In this document: one piece after another, positions 54,711-64,000 of the stretch
How the letters are laid out: each line of letters begins with the position of its first letter
Position numbering within the stretch: the stretch's first letter is position 1
Assembly (NCBI GenBank): GCA_050692055.1
Contig: JBOGTC010000075.1
Location: forward strand, 4,438 to 68,437
Origin: Candidatus Limnocylindria bacterium
GTDB taxonomy: Bacteria > Chloroflexota > Limnocylindria > QHBO01
Direction: 5' to 3'
Length of the DNA: 64,000 bases
Program-made: the position numbers and the translations under genes
Notes under the pieces: model-generated
Told to the model about the DNA's origin: nothing
Seen by the model: only the letters and a program-made list of their open reading frames with translations
The model's database searches: none

Positions 54711-55040
54711 TCAGTCGTCAGCTCTCTTGCCGAACCGGCCGCCTGATCGCTTCCGGAGCCGGCTGATGCGTCGCTGGATGTCATGGCGCCTCGTTTCGGT
54801 CTCATCGCGATCGAGACCGATGACTTCCAGCTCGCCGTCGCGCATCCTCACGAGCACGACCGATCCCTCCTCGACGCCGGCCGGCAGTCGATCGAGCGGG
54901 ACGTGATGCTCGATCTCGTCATCGCCGACGAGTACGACCGCCAGCCCGTCGGTCAGGCGATCGACCACACCGCGCAGCGGATCATCAGCCGACACAGGCG
55001 ACCCCCTGGGCCTTGATGTCCGCCAAACGCGCGGAGGCAA
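54711..55040 (-). CDS. DUF3006-like small protein
   Basis: 109 aa. Start uncertain. Confidence 0.4.
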   Translation of the reverse strand: MPPRVWRTSRPRGSPVSADDPLRGVVDRLTDGLAVVLVGDDEIEHHVPLDRLPAGVEEGSVVLVRMRDGELEVIGLDRDETETRRHDIQRRISRLRKRSGGRFGKRADD

Positions 55041-56514
55041 TGCCGTTCACGCGGTCCAGGTCATCGACGGATCCGAACGGCCGCAGTGACGGAATCTCTG
55101 CGGCACGTACTGGTCCGATGTGGATGATCAGCTGCAGCTGCTCGTACGTCGCGGAGTTGATGTCCACCTGACCCGGGGCGCAGCCGCCCGTGACGGGTGG
55201 TGGCGGCGGAGGGGCGGCGATCGGCACCGGCGTGACGACCTGCGCCGGTGGCGTGCTGATCACCGGCGCTGACCGGGAGGTGGCAACGCTGTAGGTGGTC
55301 CCGTCGGTCCGGACGATGACCGTGCCATGCGTCGGCGTGCCGTAGATATCGATGCCTGCGCCCGCGAGCCTCGTGACCACCTCGTCGTGCGGGTGCCCGT
55401 ACTGATTGCCGGCGCTCGCCGAGTAGACCGCGACCTGGGGCCGCACCGCGGCCAGGAACTCCGCACTGGTCGAGGTGTTCGATCCGTGGTGGCCGACCTG
55501 GTAGACCGTCGAGGCCAAGCCGGAACCGTGACGCGAGACGATGGCAGCCTCGACATCGGCCTCGGCGTCTCCGGTGAAGAGGAAGGAGACCGAGCCGTAT
55601 GACACGCGAAGCGTGAGCATGTCGGTGTCGATATCACCGCTCAGGCTCGCCGGATGCAGGACTTGGACCGTGAGCGAGCCCACCGTGGTCGTCTGTCCGG
55701 CGCGTGGCTCCTCGTAGGCCGCGTCCGAGCGCTCGATCGCGGAGAGCGCCCGCGAGAACGTCTGCGTGGTGTGCGACGTTCCGGGCATCCAGACCTCTGC
55801 CACCGCGAGGCTGTCCAGCACGCTGTCCAGCTGGCCGATGTGGTCGGCATGCCCGTGGGTGATCGCCACGACGTCGAGCTCGGTCACGCCGGCGGCGGTC
55901 AGCAGCGGGACGACGTCATTGCGATCATGCCGTCCGGCGTCTATGAGCAGCGTCGCGTCGGGAGCCACCAGGAGCGTCGCATCGCCCTGCCCAACGTCCA
56001 GGAAGTGCACGACGAGCTCGCCGCTGGTAGCCGTTACCGCCTCGCTCGGCTCAGATTCCGAAGGCGCGGGCGAAGGCGTGATAGTGGCACGAGGAGTGGG
56101 TGCCGCGGTCGGCTTCGAAGTCGGCGTAGGCGAAGAGAAGGATTGGCTCGGGCTCGAGGACTGGGACGGCTCAGTGAGTGCAGGAGCGGAGTGCGCCGGG
56201 GCCGACGCCGATTGGTCAGACGGGGCCCTGATTCCGTAGCTAGCGACGGCGAGCGGCAGGGAGATTGCCAGCAGCAGCAGCGCTGCAAAGCGCAGCGGCG
56301 TGGCGCGCAGTGCAAACGGCACGAACCCGAGGAACGGATGACGGAGCAGTCGATCGACGACTGCCGGTCGTCGCCATGCCACCAGGAGGACGCCGACCGC
56401 CGCGAGGAGCAAGAGCGGGCCGATCAAGACGAGCACCGCCAACCCGACCATCAGGCCGATGACGAGGCCTGTCCGGGCAAGCGGCGACGACGGTAGGCGC
56501 GGGAGACGAGCCAC
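54985..56514 (-). CDS. Membrane-anchored ComEC/Rec2-type MBL-fold hydrolase fused to C-terminal ComEA-like helix-hairpin-helix DNA-binding domain
   Basis: Two N-terminal TM helices, Pro/Ser/Thr-rich linker, MBL motifs (HFLDVGQGDA, ITHGHADHIG, GHHGS), then DINSATYEQLQLIIHIGPVRAAEI...VNGIASARLADIKAQG (helix-hairpin-helix). Confidence 0.65.
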   Translation of the reverse strand: MARLPRLPSSPLARTGLVIGLMVGLAVLVLIGPLLLLAAVGVLLVAWRRPAVVDRLLRHPFLGFVPFALRATPLRFAALLLLAISLPLAVASYGIRAPSDQSASAPAHSAPALTEPSQSSSPSQSFSSPTPTSKPTAAPTPRATITPSPAPSESEPSEAVTATSGELVVHFLDVGQGDATLLVAPDATLLIDAGRHDRNDVVPLLTAAGVTELDVVAITHGHADHIGQLDSVLDSLAVAEVWMPGTSHTTQTFSRALSAIERSDAAYEEPRAGQTTTVGSLTVQVLHPASLSGDIDTDMLTLRVSYGSVSFLFTGDAEADVEAAIVSRHGSGLASTVYQVGHHGSNTSTSAEFLAAVRPQVAVYSASAGNQYGHPHDEVVTRLAGAGIDIYGTPTHGTVIVRTDGTTYSVATSRSAPVISTPPAQVVTPVPIAAPPPPPPVTGGCAPGQVDINSATYEQLQLIIHIGPVRAAEIPSLRPFGSVDDLDRVNGIASARLADIKAQGVACVG

Positions 56515-56589: not shown

Positions 56590-57516
56590 TCAGCCGCGAA
56601 ACAGCGTGTCGCCGTGCCACTCGAGGTACTCGGCCGAGGGCGGCGGAGCCGGGGGCAACGGCGAACGGACCGATGCACCCTCGAGGGCGTAGTAGTCGCG
56701 GCCGTTCTCGAACTCCTCGCGGATCCGGCGGCTGACGCGCAGCTCCAGCGACGGCGTGACTGTCACGTAGCCGGCGTCGAACAAGGCGTGGAGGTCCTTG
56801 CGCAGCAGGATCCCGTTCTCGAGCCGATGCGGACCGAGCTCGGCATACGGGCGGATGTGGGCGGCGTCGAGCACCGGCAGCGTCCGCTCACCGGTGACGG
56901 CGCATCTGCGCTGATAGGCGTCGGTCACGAGCAGGCGGAAGGCGCCTTGGCCAAGCCGACGCTGCATCAGCATCGGCGCCCCGTACCGATCCTCTGCGAT
57001 CGCGTGATCGGCCGGAACCCGGTTGGCCAGCGCCAGCTGCACCCGGCTCCACAGGAGCGCCCCCTCACCGATGTCGCTGTCGAACGTCTTGCCCTGCACG
57101 ATGTTCGGCGCCCAGTCGGCAGGCGGCGCGATCCAATCGGCCTGGTCGAGGAAGAACGGCTCGACCAGTACCAGGCAGCCGACCTGGTCGGCGTGGATGT
57201 CAATCTTCGTGCGCCGATATCGGCCGATGCGCGCAACCATCTCCTCGAAGCTGCCCGCGCCGTTCTCGATCCCGAACGTGTCCCACGTCATCCGCACCGG
57301 CAGCGCCGAGTAATGCGCGAAGAACCCACCGCCCACGATCCAGCCACCGTGCGACGCATGGAGCTTGAAGAGGAAGAGCGCGCCAGGCTCCAGCGTCACC
57401 GGCGGCCGCCCGGCGCTCGGCTGCCAGAAGTTGACCTCCGACAGCTCCGGCCTGGCCGAGAGAAACCGGAACCAGTCGTAGTCGGTGATTCCGACCCAGT
57501 AACGCATGGCCCTCAA
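56590..57516 (-). CDS. HNH endonuclease with ~150-aa N-terminal uncharacterised domain (candidate modification-dependent/Type IV restriction endonuclease)
   Basis: C-terminal HNH motif CAVTGERTLPVLDAAHIRPYAELGPHRLENGILLRKDLHALFD. N-terminal domain (MRYWVGITDYDWFRFL...GGWIVGGGFFAHYS) not assigned. Confidence 0.6.
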   Translation of the reverse strand: MRAMRYWVGITDYDWFRFLSARPELSEVNFWQPSAGRPPVTLEPGALFLFKLHASHGGWIVGGGFFAHYSALPVRMTWDTFGIENGAGSFEEMVARIGRYRRTKIDIHADQVGCLVLVEPFFLDQADWIAPPADWAPNIVQGKTFDSDIGEGALLWSRVQLALANRVPADHAIAEDRYGAPMLMQRRLGQGAFRLLVTDAYQRRCAVTGERTLPVLDAAHIRPYAELGPHRLENGILLRKDLHALFDAGYVTVTPSLELRVSRRIREEFENGRDYYALEGASVRSPLPPAPPPSAEYLEWHGDTLFRG

Positions 57517-57542
57517 GTATCAGTGAATTTGCCTCGACACCG

Positions 57543-58109
57543 ATGGTAGCCTTGCCGCCAAGCAAGCCACCAATGCCTTGCTCGAGGGGACCAATGCACG
57601 AGCTGCCCGATAGACCATTCGCCCGATACGCCAACGGCGGAGCGGAGCTGCTCGGCATCCCGGCGTGGGGTGACGGGACGGCTCGCGCAGGGTACGGCCG
57701 ACCTGTCTTCGCCGAATGCGGATACCAGTGCGTGTACTGCAGCTTCGACATGGGCGCGCCGTACGAGAACTGGCTGAACCTGTCTGTCGACCACGTCGTC
57801 CCGGAGCACCTCGTGAAGGCCGCCTGGCCGCGCGAGTGGGTGCTCGACCGGATCAACCTGGTCACGTGCTGCCGAGCGTGCAACGAGTTCCTGAATGGCT
57901 ATCGCGTGATCGACCCGACGCCGCCTGCCACCTTCGCCGGCTTCATCGCCGTTCGTGACCGAGTCTTCGACGAGAAGCTGGCTCACGCCCTGAAGCGGCA
58001 CGCCGTCGAACGCGAGCGGTATGTCGCGGGTCGACCTGCCGGCCCGACCGACGTCCAGGAGCAGGTCGCCGAACATGACGTCCAACGCGTACGAGCTGTC
58101 TATGGGTAG
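57543..58109 (+). CDS. HNH endonuclease (McrA-like zinc-finger HNH)
   Basis: CGYQCVYCSFDM...SVDHVVPEHLV...LVTCCRACNEF. Confidence 0.6.
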   Translation: MVALPPSKPPMPCSRGPMHELPDRPFARYANGGAELLGIPAWGDGTARAGYGRPVFAECGYQCVYCSFDMGAPYENWLNLSVDHVVPEHLVKAAWPREWVLDRINLVTCCRACNEFLNGYRVIDPTPPATFAGFIAVRDRVFDEKLAHALKRHAVERERYVAGRPAGPTDVQEQVAEHDVQRVRAVYG

Positions 58110-58199: not shown

Positions 58200-59051
58200 A
58201 TGGCTAGACCAGCGACGATCCGCATCTTCCTGGCGGATGGAACTCCTGAAGGCCTGCGGATCATTGAGAAGTCACTCTGGACCGGTCGCGGGTTCGACTT
58301 TGCGCGCGCGGAGTGGACGAGGGTTCGGTCGAGGGACGATTTTGCTAAGCCAGGCGTGTACGTGCTCTCCGGGCCGGCCGATGACGGAACCACGATCATC
58401 TACGTCGGAGAGGCGGATGAGCTGCGATCCCGCCTCAACCTCCACCACGGCTCGCTCGACTTCTGGACACGAGCGATCGCATTCGTCAGCAAGGACGAGA
58501 ACCTGAACAAGGCTGGCGTCAAGTACCTGGAGTCGCGCCTTGTCGCGCTGGCAACCGATGCAAAGCGGGCGGCTTTGAAGAACGGAAACGTACCCGGCGC
58601 TCCGTTCATGTCGGAAGCCGACCGCGCCGAAGCGGAAGGCTTCCTGGAGGAGATGCTACCGATCTATCCCCTCATGGGCATCACGGCATTCGAGGTCGTT
58701 CAGGTCTCCGCTGCTGACCCTCAATCTGTCCGGCTGCATCTCAATCGCGCCGGAATCGTCGCCTATGGGCGGGATATCGCTGAGGGCTTTGTTGTCGAAG
58801 CAGGGTCAGCCGCGAGAAGCGGCGAAACCAAGGGCTTGCATCAATATGTCCGCACACTGAGATCAAAGCTGTTGGCGGACGGCGTCCTCGTCGCCGATGG
58901 CCCACAGCTCCGCGTCGCGTCCGACTACGTGTTCGGTTCACCCTCCACGGCCGCGGCCGTGATTCTCGGCAGCCCGGCAAACGGCCGGACCGAGTGGACC
59001 GACGAGCAAGGCCGCATGTTGAAGACGATCCAGGAGAAGGCGGCGGAATGA
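58200..59051 (+). CDS. GIY-YIG nuclease domain + DUF4357 protein
   Basis: GVYVLSGPADDGTTIIYVGEADELRSRLNLH (GIY-YIG-like) N-terminus and C-terminal region resembling DUF4357. Family assignment from memory. Confidence 0.55.
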   Translation: MARPATIRIFLADGTPEGLRIIEKSLWTGRGFDFARAEWTRVRSRDDFAKPGVYVLSGPADDGTTIIYVGEADELRSRLNLHHGSLDFWTRAIAFVSKDENLNKAGVKYLESRLVALATDAKRAALKNGNVPGAPFMSEADRAEAEGFLEEMLPIYPLMGITAFEVVQVSAADPQSVRLHLNRAGIVAYGRDIAEGFVVEAGSAARSGETKGLHQYVRTLRSKLLADGVLVADGPQLRVASDYVFGSPSTAAAVILGSPANGRTEWTDEQGRMLKTIQEKAAE

Positions 59052-59115
59052 TCACAACCCATCGGCATCTGCCGTACAGCTTCGAGCGCCCCCCGGAAGT
59101 CGGCGGTTGGCTAGC

Positions 59116-59823
59116 CGATGACGGAGCTGCAGACCAACGTCCTCTACTACGGCGACAACCTCGAGATCCTGCGCCGATACTCCCGGACGCCTCGGTCGAC
59201 CTGATCTACCTCGACGCGCCGTTCAACTCGAACCGCGACTGCTCGCCTTCGAGGACACCTGGCACTGGGGCCCATCGGCCGAGTCGACCTACCGATACCT
59301 GACGAACACGGTCCACCACCAGGGCCGCGTCCCGGACAAGGTCAGCACCATCATCGCGGCGCTGCGCTCAGGGATCGGCTCGAATCAGATGATGGCCTAC
59401 CTCGTCGAGATGGCCGTCCGGCTCGTCGAGCTCCATCGCGTCCTGAAGCCGACCGGCTCGCTCTACCTCCACTGCGACCCTACCGCAAGCCACTACCTAA
59501 AGCTCATTCTCGACGGCGTCTTCGGGCCGCTCAGCTTCCGCAACGAGATCAGCTGGAAGCGATTCAGTGGCAAGAACGATCCCAAGCGGTATGGCCGAAA
59601 TCACGACGTCATCCTCTTCTACAGCAGCCGGACGCATGATCGAGCGGATCACGCAGAAGGTGCGTCACGCAGATGGATACACCGAAATGGAAACACGCGT
59701 AGACCGGGATATCTTGGTGAAGCCGCGGAAGCGGAGGTCGCGACGCCAGAAGGGCACCTCACGATGAGGCTTCACGGCTGGAACAAGTGTGGAGCGGGAG
59801 GAGATCCGGTGTCCAGTTGGTAA
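59116..59823 (+). pseudogene. Degraded N4/N6 DNA methyltransferase (PF01555-type): two frameshifts, internal deletion, mutated DPPF motif, truncated C-terminus
   Basis: My three-frame reading: frame B MTELQTNVLYYGDNLEILRRY. After a -1 shift, LPDASVDLIYLDAPFNSNRD (DAPF instead of DPPF/Y). After a second break, AFEDTWHWG...MMAYLVEMAVRLVELHRVLKPTGSLYLHCDPTASHYLKLILDGVFGPLSFRNEISWKRFSGKNDPKRYGRNHDVILFYS, then non-homologous tail. Track shows it split into ORFs 58994..59302 and 59389..59823. Confidence 0.6.
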
Positions 59824-59848: not shown

Positions 59849-60559
59849 TCAGGCGAGAGCACTAGCGCGGGTCGCTGATGTGAGGTACAGATCTCGGAGC
59901 CTATCTCGCAGTTCGATGCCGCCGTTGGTGATGCAGAGTCTGAGGTGCAGATCTTCCGGAAACTCGGCTACGTGACTCCCAGTCCGAGCCGGCCTGGCCA
60001 CATTCCTTGGCCACGTGCGCATGATCCGGTTAACGGCCGGCTGTATGGCAGGGTCCGAGAATGCAAGTCTTTCGAGCTGCAATAGGTACCACATCGACTC
60101 CAGGTTTCGACTCGCCTCGACGGCCGCTTGCCATGGAGCCGCAAACAAGAGGGCACCGTAATCCATTAGATCGCAGAAGGCCTCGACGCAGTTGCGCGAA
60201 GTGACGCTCAGGTCCAGAAGGCTCGTCGTGTGAAAGAAGTCGTTTCTCCGCGTTCGCCGTATGCGCATCTCGGCCAACAGTGAGGCCACCTCAGTCGAAA
60301 CTTCTGGTCGCTTGGCGTCGATGGCTCCTTGGACATCGGCCTGCACCTCAGCGTAGTTCTTGAATCGCTCCCCGTTTCGCGTCGCCACTGCGTCACGCCA
60401 GTTGCGATCATCGGCGAGTAGGAAGAGCTTGGAGGTCAGCTCGGTGTAGTCATCGCAAAGGATGTAGGCGGTGCGGAGATACTGCCCGCCGGATCTTCCT
60501 GTGAAGTACACCTCAACGCCGGAGCAGATCTCGTCCACCAGATACTTGAGCTGGGTCAC
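59849..60559 (-). CDS. Hypothetical protein with HEPN-like Rx4H motif (RNDFFH), translationally coupled to hsdS; candidate abortive-infection/RNase effector
   Basis: 236 aa. ATG overlaps hsdS stop (ATGA). Lower GC than flanks. Rx4H is the minimal HEPN signature. No further assignment. Confidence 0.4.
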   Translation of the reverse strand: MTQLKYLVDEICSGVEVYFTGRSGGQYLRTAYILCDDYTELTSKLFLLADDRNWRDAVATRNGERFKNYAEVQADVQGAIDAKRPEVSTEVASLLAEMRIRRTRRNDFFHTTSLLDLSVTSRNCVEAFCDLMDYGALLFAAPWQAAVEASRNLESMWYLLQLERLAFSDPAIQPAVNRIMRTWPRNVARPARTGSHVAEFPEDLHLRLCITNGGIELRDRLRDLYLTSATRASALA

Positions 60560-61199
60560 GGGGCGGCTCTAGCTTCGAGGGCAGACAAGAACGTTTGGCG
60601 GGCCTCTTGCCACTCCACGTATGCCTCCGCCATCAAGCGTGCAGCCTCTTGCCTGCGCGCATCGACGCCAGAGGCGATGTCCTCCTGCATGGCGCGGGAT
60701 GGCAAGGGAATGTCCAACGAGCGCACGTCGGTTGCCGAGATCCGAGGGTGCGTGTTCCCGGTCATCATGTGCCGCGTCTGCGCGACGACGAGGGATGATC
60801 GCAGTACCGCGGCGAGATAGCGGCCTGACACGTGGCTCCCCGGTCGGATCCGCAGAACGGCGAACTCCGGGGAGCAGACCCCGGGCTGGTCGGCGAGGTG
60901 CACCTTATTGAGGTAGGGGCGCAATCGACAGAAAAGGATGTCGCCCCGCTCAAAAGCAAGACCAGACGGGGGTACTGGCTCATCCCCTCCAGCGACGAGG
61001 TGCCCGGTCCCGGATTCGACGTTGGCCAAGCCGATGTATCGGGTGCTGTCCGAGGTGGTCGAAACCACGCGCACCAGGTCTGCGACTTCGACGAGTGGGA
61101 CGACGCGGACTCCTCGAGCGTGCGCAGAGCGCATGGACTCGACTGCTGTTAGTCGTTGGGGGTGGAAGAACGGCGCGTCGAGCCGGTTTGACCGTGCGA
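60556..61199 (-). pseudogene. hsdS: Type I restriction-modification specificity subunit HsdS, C-terminal half (TRD2 + C-terminal conserved helix), separated from its N-terminal half by IS insertion
   Basis: GVRVVPLVEVADLVRV...PEFAVLRIRPG...LDIPLPSRAMQEDIASGVDARRQEAARLMAEAYVEWQEAR typical of HsdS. Confidence 0.6.
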
Positions 61200-61204
61200 C
61201 TAGG

Positions 61205-62237
61205 TGTCGTTCCCACTTAGATCGTTGACAGACTGAGAGCCCTCGTGCTCGGTTTGGGGTTGTTGAAGCTCCACACCGAGGGAGGGCTCTCATGCTCCAT
61301 CGTACCGCCAAGCTGACGCCGTATGGGAGGCGGCTACTGGTCGAGCGGGTCCTGGTCGAGGGGTGGTCGCCGGCGATCGCGGCTGAAACGCTCGGCGTGA
61401 GCCGAGCCACCGCCTACAAGTGGCTGCGCCGCTACCGAGCCGAGGGCGTGGCCGGGCTCGAGGATCGCTCGGCACGACCGCAGCGCCGGCCACGTTCGCT
61501 GCCGGAGCGCGAGGTGCGCCGCATCCTCCGCCTTCGTCGTCGGCTGCGGGTCGGGCCGCACCGGCTCGGCCCGCTGCTCGGCCACCCGCGCTCGACGGTC
61601 TACGGCGTGCTGCGCCGTCATGGCGTGAGCCGCTTGGCCCACGCTGATCGTCTGACCGGCGTGCCGCTGCGCTACGTGCGCGAGCGGCCCGGAGAACTGA
61701 TCCACGTCGACGTCAAGCGGCTGGGTCGGGTACCCGACGGCGGTGGCCACCGCATGCTCGGCCCGGGCGCACGTCGCGACCGAGGCGCGGGGTACGACTA
61801 CCTGCACGTCGCCATCGACGACGCCACCCGGCTCGCTTTCATCGGCGTCCATGCCGACGAGCGGGCCGCCACCACGGTGCGCTTCCTGCGCGACGCGGTC
61901 GCCTTCTTCGCCGACCACGGCATCCGGGTCGAGCGGGTCATGACCGACAACGCCATGACCTACACCCAGTCGCGTCAGCTGGCAGCGCTGTTCGCGGCCT
62001 CAGGCATTCGCCACCTGCGCACCCGTCCGCGGCGGCCACAGACGAATGGCAAGGCCGAGCGTTTCATCGGCACCCTGCAGCGCGAGTGGGCCTACGCCCG
62101 TCTGTTCCGCTCGAACGCCGAACGCCTGGCGTCGCTGCCGCGCTGGCTCGAGACCTACAATCGACGGCGTCCCCATGCCGCGCTGGGTGGCCTCAGTCCG
62201 CTGACCGTGCTTGTCAACAAGCTCGGTGGGAACGACA
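61205..62237 (+). mobile_element. IS481-family insertion sequence (1033 bp) with ~27-bp imperfect terminal inverted repeats, flanked by CTAGG duplication
   Basis: Left end gTGTCGTTCCCACttagatcGTTGACA. Right end TGTCAACaagctcgGTGGGAACGACAg. Flanks aCTAGG|...|gCTAGG consistent with the NCTAGN 6-bp target duplication known for IS481. Confidence 0.75.
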
Positions 62238-62242
62238 GCTAG
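61292..62242 (+). CDS. IS481-family transposase (DDE, rve integrase core)
   Basis: 316 aa. N-terminal HTH, HVDVKRL...D...E rve-type catalytic core, IS481-typical LHRTAKLTPYGR N-terminus. Confidence 0.85.
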   Translation: MLHRTAKLTPYGRRLLVERVLVEGWSPAIAAETLGVSRATAYKWLRRYRAEGVAGLEDRSARPQRRPRSLPEREVRRILRLRRRLRVGPHRLGPLLGHPRSTVYGVLRRHGVSRLAHADRLTGVPLRYVRERPGELIHVDVKRLGRVPDGGGHRMLGPGARRDRGAGYDYLHVAIDDATRLAFIGVHADERAATTVRFLRDAVAFFADHGIRVERVMTDNAMTYTQSRQLAALFAASGIRHLRTRPRRPQTNGKAERFIGTLQREWAYARLFRSNAERLASLPRWLETYNRRRPHAALGGLSPLTVLVNKLGGNDS

Positions 62243-62243
62243 G

Positions 62244-62995
62244 CAGGCGGCCACGCGGTAGCCGCGCAGCCTGTGAGGCGGTGTGTCTATAACACCCAGG
62301 TGCGCGTCGACTAGATGGTCCACTTCGGTCATGACACGCGCTGCGATTGTCCGCTTGTCGTCACGCCGCAAGCGCGCGTCCCGATAGGCATCCGCGAGAC
62401 GGCGCTGTTCCGCCACGGATGGCAGCGGGACGACGAGCGAGCGCAGCTCCGACACATTGATGTTGGCCATCCCGGCTATTCGCCGGCTCACCAGACGAAG
62501 CTGCTCGCGTCCGCCCGTGTTGACGAAAGCCGAGAGATAGTCCGGCTCAGCCTTGGTTCGATCGACCTGCAGTCGAAGGAGATACGAGGCGAAGACCCAC
62601 TCACCATCAAGATCGAAGACGGCACTCTTCCCAACGAGCTCCTGAGAATTCGTCCGGTTCACGAGAACATCGCCCCGCGAGAGGACAAATCGCTCGAGGA
62701 CGGAATCGTCAATGCGAACGAACTTCACGTCCGAGACGTCCATGCCGTCGTCGCGAAGGTTATTCATACGAAGGATCGGAATGCCGGGTCTATGATTGCT
62801 GGCGCGCACGGAAAGCCCGTACTGAATGCGGTGAACCAGTGCTCCCAGTTCGAGGACCGGGAATCGCCACCTGTTGCGGCCGGCCGGAGTCCGCTGCGAT
62901 AACACGAATGCCGGATCAGCACGGGTGCGTAGAGAGCGGGCGGGAACACGGAAGGCGACCGGCTGACGTAGAGGACTACTAGCCGGCAACAGCAT
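62244..62995 (-). pseudogene. hsdS: HsdS N-terminal half (TRD1 + central conserved region), disrupted by the IS481 element
   Basis: RFPVLELGALVHRIQYGLSVRAS...VVPLPSVAEQRRLADAYRDARL typical of HsdS. 5' boundary uncertain. Confidence 0.55.
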
Positions 62996-64000
62996 GACCG
63001 TGGTAGAGATCGGCAATGGCCGGCAAGTCGTTGTCCGTCTCGCGGCCTGTAGCGTCGTACCCAACGAAGTCTGCGATGGCCATGAATACGTCCTCGTCCT
63101 CTTCCGCTCGCTCCGCCTCGTCGCGGCGCCGGACAAAGACGAAACTCGACTTCACGCCAGCCCCAAAATGCGAGAAGGCCGTAGCGGGCAGGCTCACAAC
63201 CGCGAGTACTTGGAAGCGCTCGAGAAGGAAGTCACGGACGTACTGGAGTGATGCATTCGTCAAGATTCCGTCCGGTAGGATGATTCCCGCGCGTCCTGTG
63301 CCCGGCTTCAGGAACTGCCACACCCGCTCGATGAAGAGCACCTCGGTCCGCTGTGATTTTCGCGGAGTGTCGCGCCCGGACTTGGACGGCATCCTGCCCA
63401 GTTCGAAAGTCGAGAGATGGGGTCGCTGCGCCAGGGTTACCTGGGCGCCAAAGGGAGGATTGGTGAGGATTAGGTCGAAGCGACCCGGCGAGAGACCGGG
63501 GTTCTTCTGCTGCAGCTGGCTGAGTGGAAGCAAGGCATCCGAACCAACTATGTTCGAGTGACCGTCGTCGTGAATGATCATGTTCATCTTCGCCACGCGG
63601 GTCAGCTCGTCGTTTATCTCGACCCCATATAGGTTGCGCGTCCCAAAGTCGTGCCAGTGCCGAAAATGCTGAGGCGTATCGGCTTGGTGGTACGCGTCCG
63701 CCTCTTTCCTCACCGCATCCAAGGCGTACAGCAGAAAGCCCCCTGAGCCACATGCTGGGTCCAAAACGATGTCATCGCTGGTTGGCTGCAGGATGTCGAT
63801 CGCGAACTGGATCAGGTCACGCGGCGTGAAGTACTGCCCGAAGTCGCCCTTGAAGAAGTTGTCGACGAACTGCTCGAATGCAACGCCTTTGATGTCCAGG
63901 TCCGTTTCCGATAGATTGACGCTCTCGAGGTGGGAGACGACGTTCCTCAGGGTTGCATCGTCGATCTTGATCGTATCGGTGAAGACGTCGGGTTCTCGCT
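62979..64000 (-). CDS. hsdM: Type I restriction-modification DNA methyltransferase subunit HsdM (3' part; gene continues past window end)
   Basis: NPPFG motif IV, LDPACGSGGFL motif I. My translation of 63765-64000 continues in frame (…FTPRDLIQFAIDILQPTSDDIVLDPACGSGG), so the track ORF start at 63764 is an artefact. Confidence 0.8.
   Translation of the reverse strand, partial: REPDVFTDTIKIDDATLRNVVSHLESVNLSETDLDIKGVAFEQFVDNFFKGDFGQYFTPRDLIQFAIDILQPTSDDIVLDPACGSGGFLLYALDAVRKEADAYHQADTPQHFRHWHDFGTRNLYGVEINDELTRVAKMNMIIHDDGHSNIVGSDALLPLSQLQQKNPGLSPGRFDLILTNPPFGAQVTLAQRPHLSTFELGRMPSKSGRDTPRKSQRTEVLFIERVWQFLKPGTGRAGIILPDGILTNASLQYVRDFLLERFQVLAVVSLPATAFSHFGAGVKSSFVFVRRRDEAERAEEDEDVFMAIADFVGYDATGRETDNDLPAIADLYHGHAVAG

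Follow-up and report, generated by a model that had tools for sequence, protein, structure and literature searches.

A widespread reader-HNH_2 protein from a Limnocylindria genome is a candidate solitary Type IV restriction endonuclease with a predicted PUA-superfamily, ASCH-like N-terminal domain

The protein considered here is encoded in a 64,000-nucleotide stretch of contig JBOGTC010000075.1 (the window), which comes from a high-GC metagenome-assembled genome of the Chloroflexota (Limnocylindria). Our results suggest that this 305-amino-acid (aa) protein, referred to below as the large protein, is probably a solitary, nucleoside triphosphate (NTP)-independent Type IV restriction endonuclease, in which a predicted PUA-superfamily reader domain is followed by an HNH_2 nuclease domain. 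This reading is supported by its size and architecture, which match those of the characterised Type IV enzymes VcaM4I, TagI and ScoMcrA. It is also supported by the modular use of the reader, the intact catalytic set, the lack of a recurrent methyltransferase beside its homologues, and the occurrence of these homologues on plasmids, on viral contigs and in defence contexts. The three properties that mark the class of PUA-superfamily readers fused to HNH nucleases, namely the barrel fold, an intact HNH domain and no linked cognate methyltransferase, were all found; the dependence of the enzyme on DNA modification is what we infer. An initial annotation, made from the DNA letters, had placed two divergent open reading frames (ORFs) at this site. 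Both are present, the second encoding a small HNH protein, and the same arrangement is present in a second assembly.

The maximal ORF of the large gene, 56590-57516 on the minus strand, begins at a TTG codon and would give the 308 aa of the initial annotation. Since all 43 aligned homologues begin at an ATG three codons after this TTG, with the sequence M-R-[YF]-W (MRYW/MRFW), and since the large protein shows 100% identity over 305 aa to the NCBI protein P0001 ('HNH endonuclease', Candidatus Limnocylindria bacterium), we place the gene at 56590-57507 and the length of its product at 305 aa. The family comprises at least ~8,000 homologues. Conservation is far beyond chance, since homologues made up 7,993 of the 8,000 candidates scored; the best 120 are mostly full length. 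Full-length homologues at about 50% identity were found in Chloroflexota, Pseudomonadota, Acidobacteriota, Nitrospirota, Gemmatimonadota, Planctomycetota, Deinococcota and other phyla, and members of the family are also carried by plasmids of Deinococcus, Mesorhizobium and Bradyrhizobium and by seven IMG/VR viral contigs. The GC content at third codon positions (GC3) of the large gene is 0.88, which is host-like. In the family alignment, which consists of the 43 homologues and extends down to 60% identity, the strings MRYWVGITDYDWF and GGWIVGGGFF of the large protein both lie within invariant or nearly invariant blocks, in agreement with the description of the N-terminal domain as conserved-looking.

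The C-terminal half of the large protein carries its only Pfam match, to HNH_2 (PF13391; residues 202-250, E=3e-12). Residues H217, N231, H240 and D244, together with C202, are invariant in the 43 homologues, as are N268, G269, R270, Y272, Y273, W297 and H298 in the C-terminal extension. The catalytic residues were mapped by sequence alignment to VcaM4I, in which H224, N241, D250 and D254 have been validated by mutagenesis (PMC7897488). By this mapping, H217 corresponds to the general base H224, N231 to the structural residue N241, H240 to the metal ligand D250 and D244 to the second metal ligand D254; at the first metal-ligand position the large protein thus has the canonical His whereas VcaM4I has Asp. 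The HNH_2 nuclease is predicted to be active because the catalytic set and C202 are invariant and the RxGQGxFR helix is common to the large protein and VcaM4I. The canonical HNH motif of the initial annotation is intact, with neither the catalytic His nor the Asn substituted. Among PDB sequences, the family profile found the HNH half of VcaM4I (6yex) at E=1e-11 and TagI weakly (E=0.46). NCBIfam NF045808 (PT-DNA_restrict) aligns to the large protein at profile positions 151-284 only (E=1e-17, 64.1 bits against a cut-off of 180), and the PADLOC model 'HNH Type II restriction enzyme' gave a weak match to the C-terminal half only (E=3.5e-7).

Searches with Pfam, NCBIfam and PADLOC returned nothing on the reader half (residues 1-165), their matches being confined to the C-terminal half. 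Likewise, no reader-domain match was obtained among PDB sequences, either with the single sequence or, at E<=10, with a 22-sequence profile of the N-terminal domain. The fold, by contrast, was predicted with confidence. An AlphaFold2 model of the reader alone has a predicted local distance difference test score (pLDDT) of 91.8 and a predicted template-modelling score (pTM) of 0.86; in the full-length model (pTM 0.69) the pLDDT of the N-terminal blocks is mostly >90 and at its lowest 81. The predicted order of secondary structure in the reader is beta1-alpha1-beta2-beta3-beta4-alpha2-alpha3-beta5-beta6-alpha4. When the reader alone was compared with the PDB by Foldseek, the strongest matches all belonged to the PUA superfamily, and the few unrelated structures all had E>0.1. 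The matches included AF2351 (2kku, E=1e-4), ZmASCH (5guq, template-modelling (TM) score 0.58-0.67), TTHA0113 (2dp9), EOLA1, the N-terminal domain (NTD) of SmMcrB (SmMcrB-NTD), the ASCH domain of TRIP4, the YTH domains of Mmi1 and MRB1, THYN1 bound to DNA with 5-methylcytosine (5mC), YqfB and, at rank 13, the EVE protein 2eve. No SRA structure was among the best 50 matches of the reader alone. A viral structure library likewise yielded ASCH and EVE proteins. With the full model as query, VcaM4I was the top match (E=2e-7), followed by AF2351, ZmASCH, TagI (E=8e-4) and ScoMcrA (5zmm).

We assign the reader to the PUA superfamily because the strongest PDB matches and the viral matches of a confident model all belong there. 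This superfamily is home to the SRA, EVE, YTH and ASCH readers of modified bases. On the evidence of the model, the reader is a PUA-superfamily barrel that forms a distinct sequence clade, nearest to ASCH and then to EVE and YTH. The initial annotation had proposed a reader of SRA, PUA/EVE or sulfur-binding type; this holds for the PUA superfamily at the level of the fold and fails by sequence for EVE, SRA, YTH and the sulfur-binding domain, with ASCH as the nearest relative. It had also considered that the domain might belong to a family that does not bind DNA, and the predicted barrel does not point in that direction. The conserved signature of the reader is rich in aromatic residues (T8, D9, W12, E24, V25, N26, F27, W28, P30, F47, K48, G59, W75, F78, N82 and G83), and such an aromatic and polar signature would suit a base-binding pocket. 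A search with the reader alone against 1.84 billion representatives gave 2,379 clusters at 50% identity (E<=1e-3), and partner domains were counted in 63 long representatives of these clusters. HNH_2 was the partner in 54 of the 63, an Mrr_cat PD-(D/E)XK nuclease in two (P0279 and P0328, ~340 aa, with 42-48% identity over the whole reader of ~160 aa) and a KAP-family P-loop NTPase in one (P0290, 934 aa). Because the same domain is fused to HNH_2, Mrr_cat and a KAP NTPase, we regard the reader as modular and as reused with other effectors. Such an exchange, in which one sensor is joined to nucleases of unrelated folds, has been described for modification-dependent restriction enzymes (PMC6765204).

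The closest characterised relatives are VcaM4I and TspA15I, which are EVE-HNH enzymes (PDB 6yex; PMC7897488, PMC6765204). VcaM4I, with 309 aa, is nearly the same length and has the same order of parts, a PUA-superfamily reader followed by an RxGQGxFR linker helix and an HNH_2 core; among PDB entries it matches the large protein best, by sequence as well as by fold, and the active-site positions are equivalent. The Type IV-like layout of a reader and a competent HNH domain put forward in the initial annotation was supported in all the tests made here, and this enzyme matches it well. However, the EVE domain of VcaM4I has no sequence similarity to the reader, which has no PF01878 match and is nearer in fold to ASCH than to EVE. 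VcaM4I reads 5mC and 5-hydroxymethylcytosine, whereas no match assigns a specificity to the large protein. Membership of the EVE-HNH group was rejected, none of the 63 members matching EVE at E<=1 and 2eve ranking only thirteenth by fold. TagI and ScoA3IV (SRA-HNH; PDB 6ghs) have the layout of reader and HNH domain and a related HNH subfamily in common with the large protein, but TagI has a CxxC zinc site of which the family of the large protein keeps C202 only. Membership of this group was rejected as well, there being no Pfam SAD_SRA match and no SRA structure among the closest folds.

A further comparison is with ScoA3V (Sco5330), in which a 'distantly PUA-related' domain is joined to an HNH domain and nicking is stimulated by N6-methyladenine (6mA) (PMC6765204). 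Its N-terminal domain is weakly PUA-like and clusters apart from EVE and SRA, a description that also fits the large protein (PMC6765204). Close homologues of ScoA3V have been reported only in Actinomycetales, in contrast to the many phyla found here (PMC6765204; the two were compared by description only), and this reported restriction argues against identity with ScoA3V. The phosphorothioate-dependent enzymes ScoMcrA and SprMcrA, in which a sulfur-binding domain is joined to HNH (NF045808; PDB 5zmm), are homologous in the C-terminal nuclease half. A sulfur-binding-domain enzyme was rejected, since the NF045808 alignment covers only this half and stays far below the cut-off. The nearest fold neighbours of the reader are the ASCH proteins (ZmASCH, AF2351, TTHA0113, the TRIP4 ASCH domain and YqfB), without sequence membership; the ASCH proteins known so far stand alone or are domains of eukaryotic co-activators, and a sensor role in a restriction nuclease has been characterised for none of them. 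The large protein represents a new reader clade within the known reader-HNH architecture (Lutz et al. 2019), the comparison with ScoA3V being one of descriptions only.

The genomic context was sampled at 80 species-representative loci of large-protein homologues, at which the nearest ORF on each side (149 proteins) was scanned with Pfam. The most frequent neighbour was another HNH_2 protein (16 of the 149), followed by SLFN-g3/DUF2075 helicases (8) and MazG-like proteins (7); several AAA/STAND NTPases, three ORF6N, two Mrr_cat and two NERD proteins were also present. No DNA methyltransferase family occurred even twice among these immediate neighbours. In Mesorhizobium amorphae the homologue follows a Type ISP restriction-modification (R-M) enzyme and an AbiE pair, and in Deinococcus sp. 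NW-56 it lies amid integrases and insertion sequence (IS) elements. The context of the homologues is that of defence islands and mobile elements and lacks a cognate methylase, in line with what has been reported for PUA-HNH enzymes, which are rarely found near methyltransferases (PMC6765204).

If the large protein is a Type IV enzyme, its action can be envisaged as follows. The ASCH-like domain would scan DNA, flip a modified base and hold it in an aromatic pocket, as the fold and the conserved Trp and Phe residues suggest. By analogy with VcaM4I, binding may relieve an auto-inhibition exerted by the reader and the linker helix. The HNH_2 domain, probably as a dimer, would then cut DNA near the modified site, with the invariant H217 acting as a general base and the equally invariant H240 and D244 ligating a single metal ion, roles that are also drawn from VcaM4I. 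The host would be spared because its own DNA lacks the modification. N6-modified adenine, N4-modified cytosine and hypermodified phage bases may equally be the target; the modelled ASCH-like fold may bring 6mA or N4-modified cytosine to mind, and the data favour neither. A more specific proposal is that the reader recognises a modification that has no known Type IV reader, such as N4-acyl or N4-methyl cytosine, N6-hypermodified adenine or a deazapurine, and that in a sizeable minority of genomes the enzyme perhaps also forms a module with the second HNH_2 protein (14 of the 80 loci) and the MazG-like protein (7 of the 80) described below, hitting both modified phage DNA and the pool of modified deoxynucleoside triphosphates. 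We consider this possible but rather doubtful.

Several observations weigh against our conclusion. None of the 63 diverse members matches a Pfam family of the EVE, ASCH, YTH, SRA or PUA type at E<=1, and the fold matches of the reader are moderate (TM 0.5-0.67, 12-20% identity). Among the nearest fold neighbours are ZmASCH and YqfB, enzymes whose substrates are RNA or free nucleosides, and a role of ASCH domains as DNA readers is without experimental demonstration (PMC11037411). The arrangement of the two domains in the large protein is uncertain, the linker having pLDDT <50 and the full-length model pTM 0.69. Finally, a biochemical or genetic characterisation of any member of the family was not found in the searchable literature.

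An alternate explanation is that the large protein is an abortive-infection nuclease, in which the PUA-like domain binds a free modified mononucleotide arising from infection and the HNH domain then degrades DNA indiscriminately. The PUA-like (PUA/ASCH-clan) domain of PUA-Cal-HAD senses free m6-dAMP and activates an effector; fusions of its sensor family to HNH and McrB occur as well, and a link of this family to MazG-like enzymes is rare (preprint 10.64898/2026.01.15.699771). The interchangeable effectors, HNH among them, and the occasional MazG-like association resemble what we see in the family of the large protein, where MazG-like genes are tightly linked and co-directional at 7 of the 80 loci. 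In PUA-Cal-HAD, however, the sensor binds a free nucleotide and drives depletion of deoxynucleotides rather than cleavage of DNA. Furthermore, the Escherichia coli PUA-Cal sequence, which we recovered by way of a published primer, gave an hhalign probability of 0.05% over 13 aligned columns with the reader, the template being a single sequence, and membership of the PUA-Cal sensor family was rejected. The whole architecture including the linker motif matches the DNA-reading VcaM4I, and Mrr-type fusions are typical of Type IV enzymes that target DNA, so we regard a nucleotide-triggered nuclease as unlikely. The ASCH-like domain could also itself be catalytic or directed to RNA, for example with an activity resembling that of the ribonuclease ZmASCH or of the N4-acyl-cytosine amidohydrolase YqfB, and the protein could serve RNA or nucleoside metabolism or repair. 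The nearest neighbours of the domain by fold are ASCH proteins, for which only enzymatic roles have experimental support. Yet the domain is fused to the DNA nucleases HNH_2 and Mrr_cat, its homologues lie in defence islands and mobile elements, and there is no Pfam ASCH match to its sequence; we consider such a role improbable.

The presence of two methyltransferase systems within 6 kb of the large gene in the window, together with the weak PADLOC match to a Type II restriction enzyme noted above, raises the possibility of a conventional HNH restriction nuclease that is blocked by modification, or of a nuclease that binds DNA non-specifically, with the gene for the protecting methyltransferase lying elsewhere. 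Both nearby systems are inactivated, though, while the nuclease ORF is intact; no methyltransferase recurs beside the homologues, and the reader belongs to a superfamily of base-flipping, modification-sensing domains. A conventional nuclease of this kind is hardly probable. The two HNH genes, which are adjacent and divergent in the window, might alternatively constitute a two-component nuclease system. A tblastn search for the small HNH protein found it at none of the 80 loci encoding large-protein homologues, including L001-L003, whose homologues are 77-90% identical, and the divergent pair of the initial annotation is therefore not a feature of the family. The sole relative in which both genes are linked is L083, where their homologues are again divergent (84.5% identical for the large and 82.5% for the small protein). 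In L083, however, the two are separated by a NERD gene and a second HNH_2 gene, which together with the large gene make up an array of three overlapping genes. By DNA alignment, window and L083 are collinear on either side of this cassette, which is exactly what the window lacks; the junction coincides with the large gene's start codon. At other loci the small HNH has an SLFN-g3 helicase or a HORMA/SAVED cluster as its neighbour, and the sizes of the families are far apart, with 148 matches for the small protein against at least ~8,000 for the large. Because the window equals L083 without the cassette, the adjacency of the two HNH genes is the result of synteny and cassette loss or gain, with no conserved two-gene design. 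The co-occurrence data effectively refute a two-HNH system, the chance of which we consider very slim.

Taking the large protein as a solitary candidate Type IV nuclease, its interest lies in several directions. Type IV enzymes are both defence systems and laboratory tools for mapping DNA modifications, and each new clade of Type IV readers has so far brought a new specificity. The family described here is very large and occurs in many phyla, on plasmids and in prophages, but 'HNH endonuclease' is the only annotation it bears. A role for ASCH domains in reading DNA modifications has been predicted since 2015-2016; an ASCH-like reader of modified DNA, if true, would be the first experimental proof that domains of this type read modified DNA. 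The specificity is directly testable because cultured carriers exist, among them Mesorhizobium amorphae (WP_006205527.1) and Deinococcus plasmids. For the window itself, the outcome is an annotation: the large gene encodes a candidate Type IV nuclease, solitary and placed at the margin of an R-M island in decay (Table 1).

Table 1. Features of the large gene and its surroundings in the window
Feature	Coordinates	Strand	Remarks
DUF3006 protein	54711-55040	-	follows the metallo-beta-lactamase-fold gene
Membrane-anchored metallo-beta-lactamase-fold protein with C-terminal helix-hairpin-helix (ComEC/ComEA-like)	54985-56514	-	75 bp downstream of the large gene
Candidate Type IV restriction endonuclease gene (PUA-like reader + HNH_2)	56590..57507, stop included	-	305 aa; ORF; 100% identity to P0001; thousands of full-length homologues; conserved over full length
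C-terminal extension of nuclease domain	56590..56757	-	residues 251-305 + stop; motifs NGRDYY and LEWH, conserved; NF045808 profile 151-284
Linker helix (RLGQGAFR) and HNH_2 beta-beta-alpha-metal core	56758..56958	-	residues 184-250; Pfam HNH_2; aligns to VcaM4I 184-273
Linker	56959..57021	-	residues 163-183; length-variable, low-confidence; pLDDT <50 at 165-182; sole indel-rich region of family alignment
Predicted PUA-superfamily pseudo-barrel reader, ASCH-like	57022..57507	-	residues 1-162; domain model and Foldseek
Divergent intergenic region, 86 bp	57508..57593		collinear with region upstream of small HNH gene in L083 (DNA alignment)
Stand-alone zinc-finger HNH(N) nuclease, CxxC...DH...N...CxxCN	57594..58109	+	171 aa; NCBI model P0121; invariant motif; neighbour, not part of the system
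DUF4357 protein, intact	58200-59051	+	PADLOC PDC-S14, E=4e-92; faint UvrC/GIY-YIG-like N-terminal similarity
N6_N4 methyltransferase remnant	58994-59823	+	frameshifted over two frames; DAPF instead of DPPY/F; C-terminal part missing
236-aa ORF	59849-60559	-	overlaps end of specificity gene by 4 bp; lowest GC of region, 0.59
Type I-like specificity (hsdS-like) gene, split by IS481 element	~60556-63136 (parts 60556-61188 and ~62254-63136)	-	
IS481-family element	61189-62253		42-nt imperfect inverted repeats 61189-61230 / 62212-62253
IS481 transposase	61292-62242	+	
N6-adenine methylase gene (HSDR_N_2 + N6_Mtase + Eco57I), 610 aa	ends 62979, runs beyond 64000	-	upstream of split specificity gene

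Beyond the small HNH gene, GC3 falls to 0.70-0.75 from position 58200 onward. As the initial annotation had held, there is no adjacent intact methyltransferase: the N6_N4 gene is a frameshifted and truncated remnant, and the specificity gene that accompanies the N6-adenine methylase is split by the IS481 element. That the nuclease is intact while both methylase systems beside it have decayed fits a modification-dependent enzyme without proving one. The 236-aa ORF, which has no match in Pfam, NCBIfam or PADLOC, is likely the third gene of the R-M operon. On its other side, the large gene is followed on the same strand by the metallo-beta-lactamase-fold and DUF3006 genes, and a metallo-beta-lactamase-fold gene of this kind adjoins the large-protein homologue at none of the 80 loci.

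A second HNH_2 family (~304 aa) was found in the flanks of the large-protein homologues at 14 of the 80 loci from several phyla (L001:2859-3770, L003:6676-7572, L005, L028, L029, L046, L054, L059, L066, L067, L069, L074, L075 and L078; also L083:3057-3971); it is absent from the window. Its genes are mostly directly adjacent to the large-gene homologue and co-directional with it, either upstream or downstream. Its N-terminal domain differs from the reader and has the motif YRGTDPxHPDNRGLRxAM..PLVYF; the only PDB sequence matches of this domain were peroxidases, which were rejected as spurious. The two proteins may be tandem Type IV enzymes or functional partners. MazG-like genes (PF12643, ~120 aa), also absent from the window, are co-directional and tightly coupled with the reader-HNH gene, with gaps of -27 to +21 bp, at 7 of the 80 loci (L020:7653-7997, L051:7654-8001, L058:8900-9289, L071:1890-2288, L072:1856-2200, L073:8930-9301 and L076:8942-9307). 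This coupling suggests an operon that joins a nuclease for modified DNA with a nucleotide pyrophosphatase. SLFN-g3/DUF2075 helicases of ~640 aa adjoin the homologues at 8 of the 80 loci in variable orientation (L006, L009, L017, L021, L046, L048 and L060; also L082:3522-5944).

The small HNH gene is an independent neighbour in the defence island, unrelated to the large gene. Its maximal ORF is 57543-58109 on the plus strand (188 aa); we take 57594 as the start, and hence 171 aa as the length of the product, because both P0121 and the onset of conservation in the homologues put it there. With the supported start codons of both genes, the gap between them is 86 bp rather than the 26 bp given originally. 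The DNA of this gap, CCTCAAGTATCAGTGAA..., is conserved between the window and L083; a scan of it showed no sigma-70-like promoter or terminator pattern, and an Rfam scan of the region found nothing. The cassette that distinguishes the two loci, a NERD/Zn-ribbon nuclease (311 aa) and an HNH_2 protein (304 aa), can be seen by comparing 57470-57660 of the window with L083:3020-3100 and L083:4870-5070. The GC3 of the small gene, 0.81, is host-like.

The Pfam HNH match of the small protein is below threshold (E=0.016), and PADLOC gave PtuB/PDC-M01B-like matches, all weak. We regard it as an intact zinc-finger HNH(N) nuclease because the residues of its motif (C46, C49, D66, H67, N88, C93, C96 and N97) are invariant in 34 homologues. 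The earlier label of a stand-alone 'McrA-like' HNH is apt for the HNH motif and the stand-alone form, while a reader domain of the EcoKMcrA type was not found. No link between the small HNH and the DUF4357/PDC-S14 gene was seen in L082-L086. In L082 the small-HNH homologue is followed by an SLFN-g3 helicase gene that overlaps its stop codon by 4 bp, and in L084-L086 homologues adjoin a HORMA/SAVED cluster of the CBASS (cyclic-oligonucleotide-based anti-phage signalling system) type. Close homologues (P0133, P0136, P0139 and P0141-P0144, ~290-320 aa; P0126 and P0138) carry an extra ~140-aa N-terminal region or a C-terminal HTH_17 domain, and the small HNH of the window is the bare nuclease core with short flanks.

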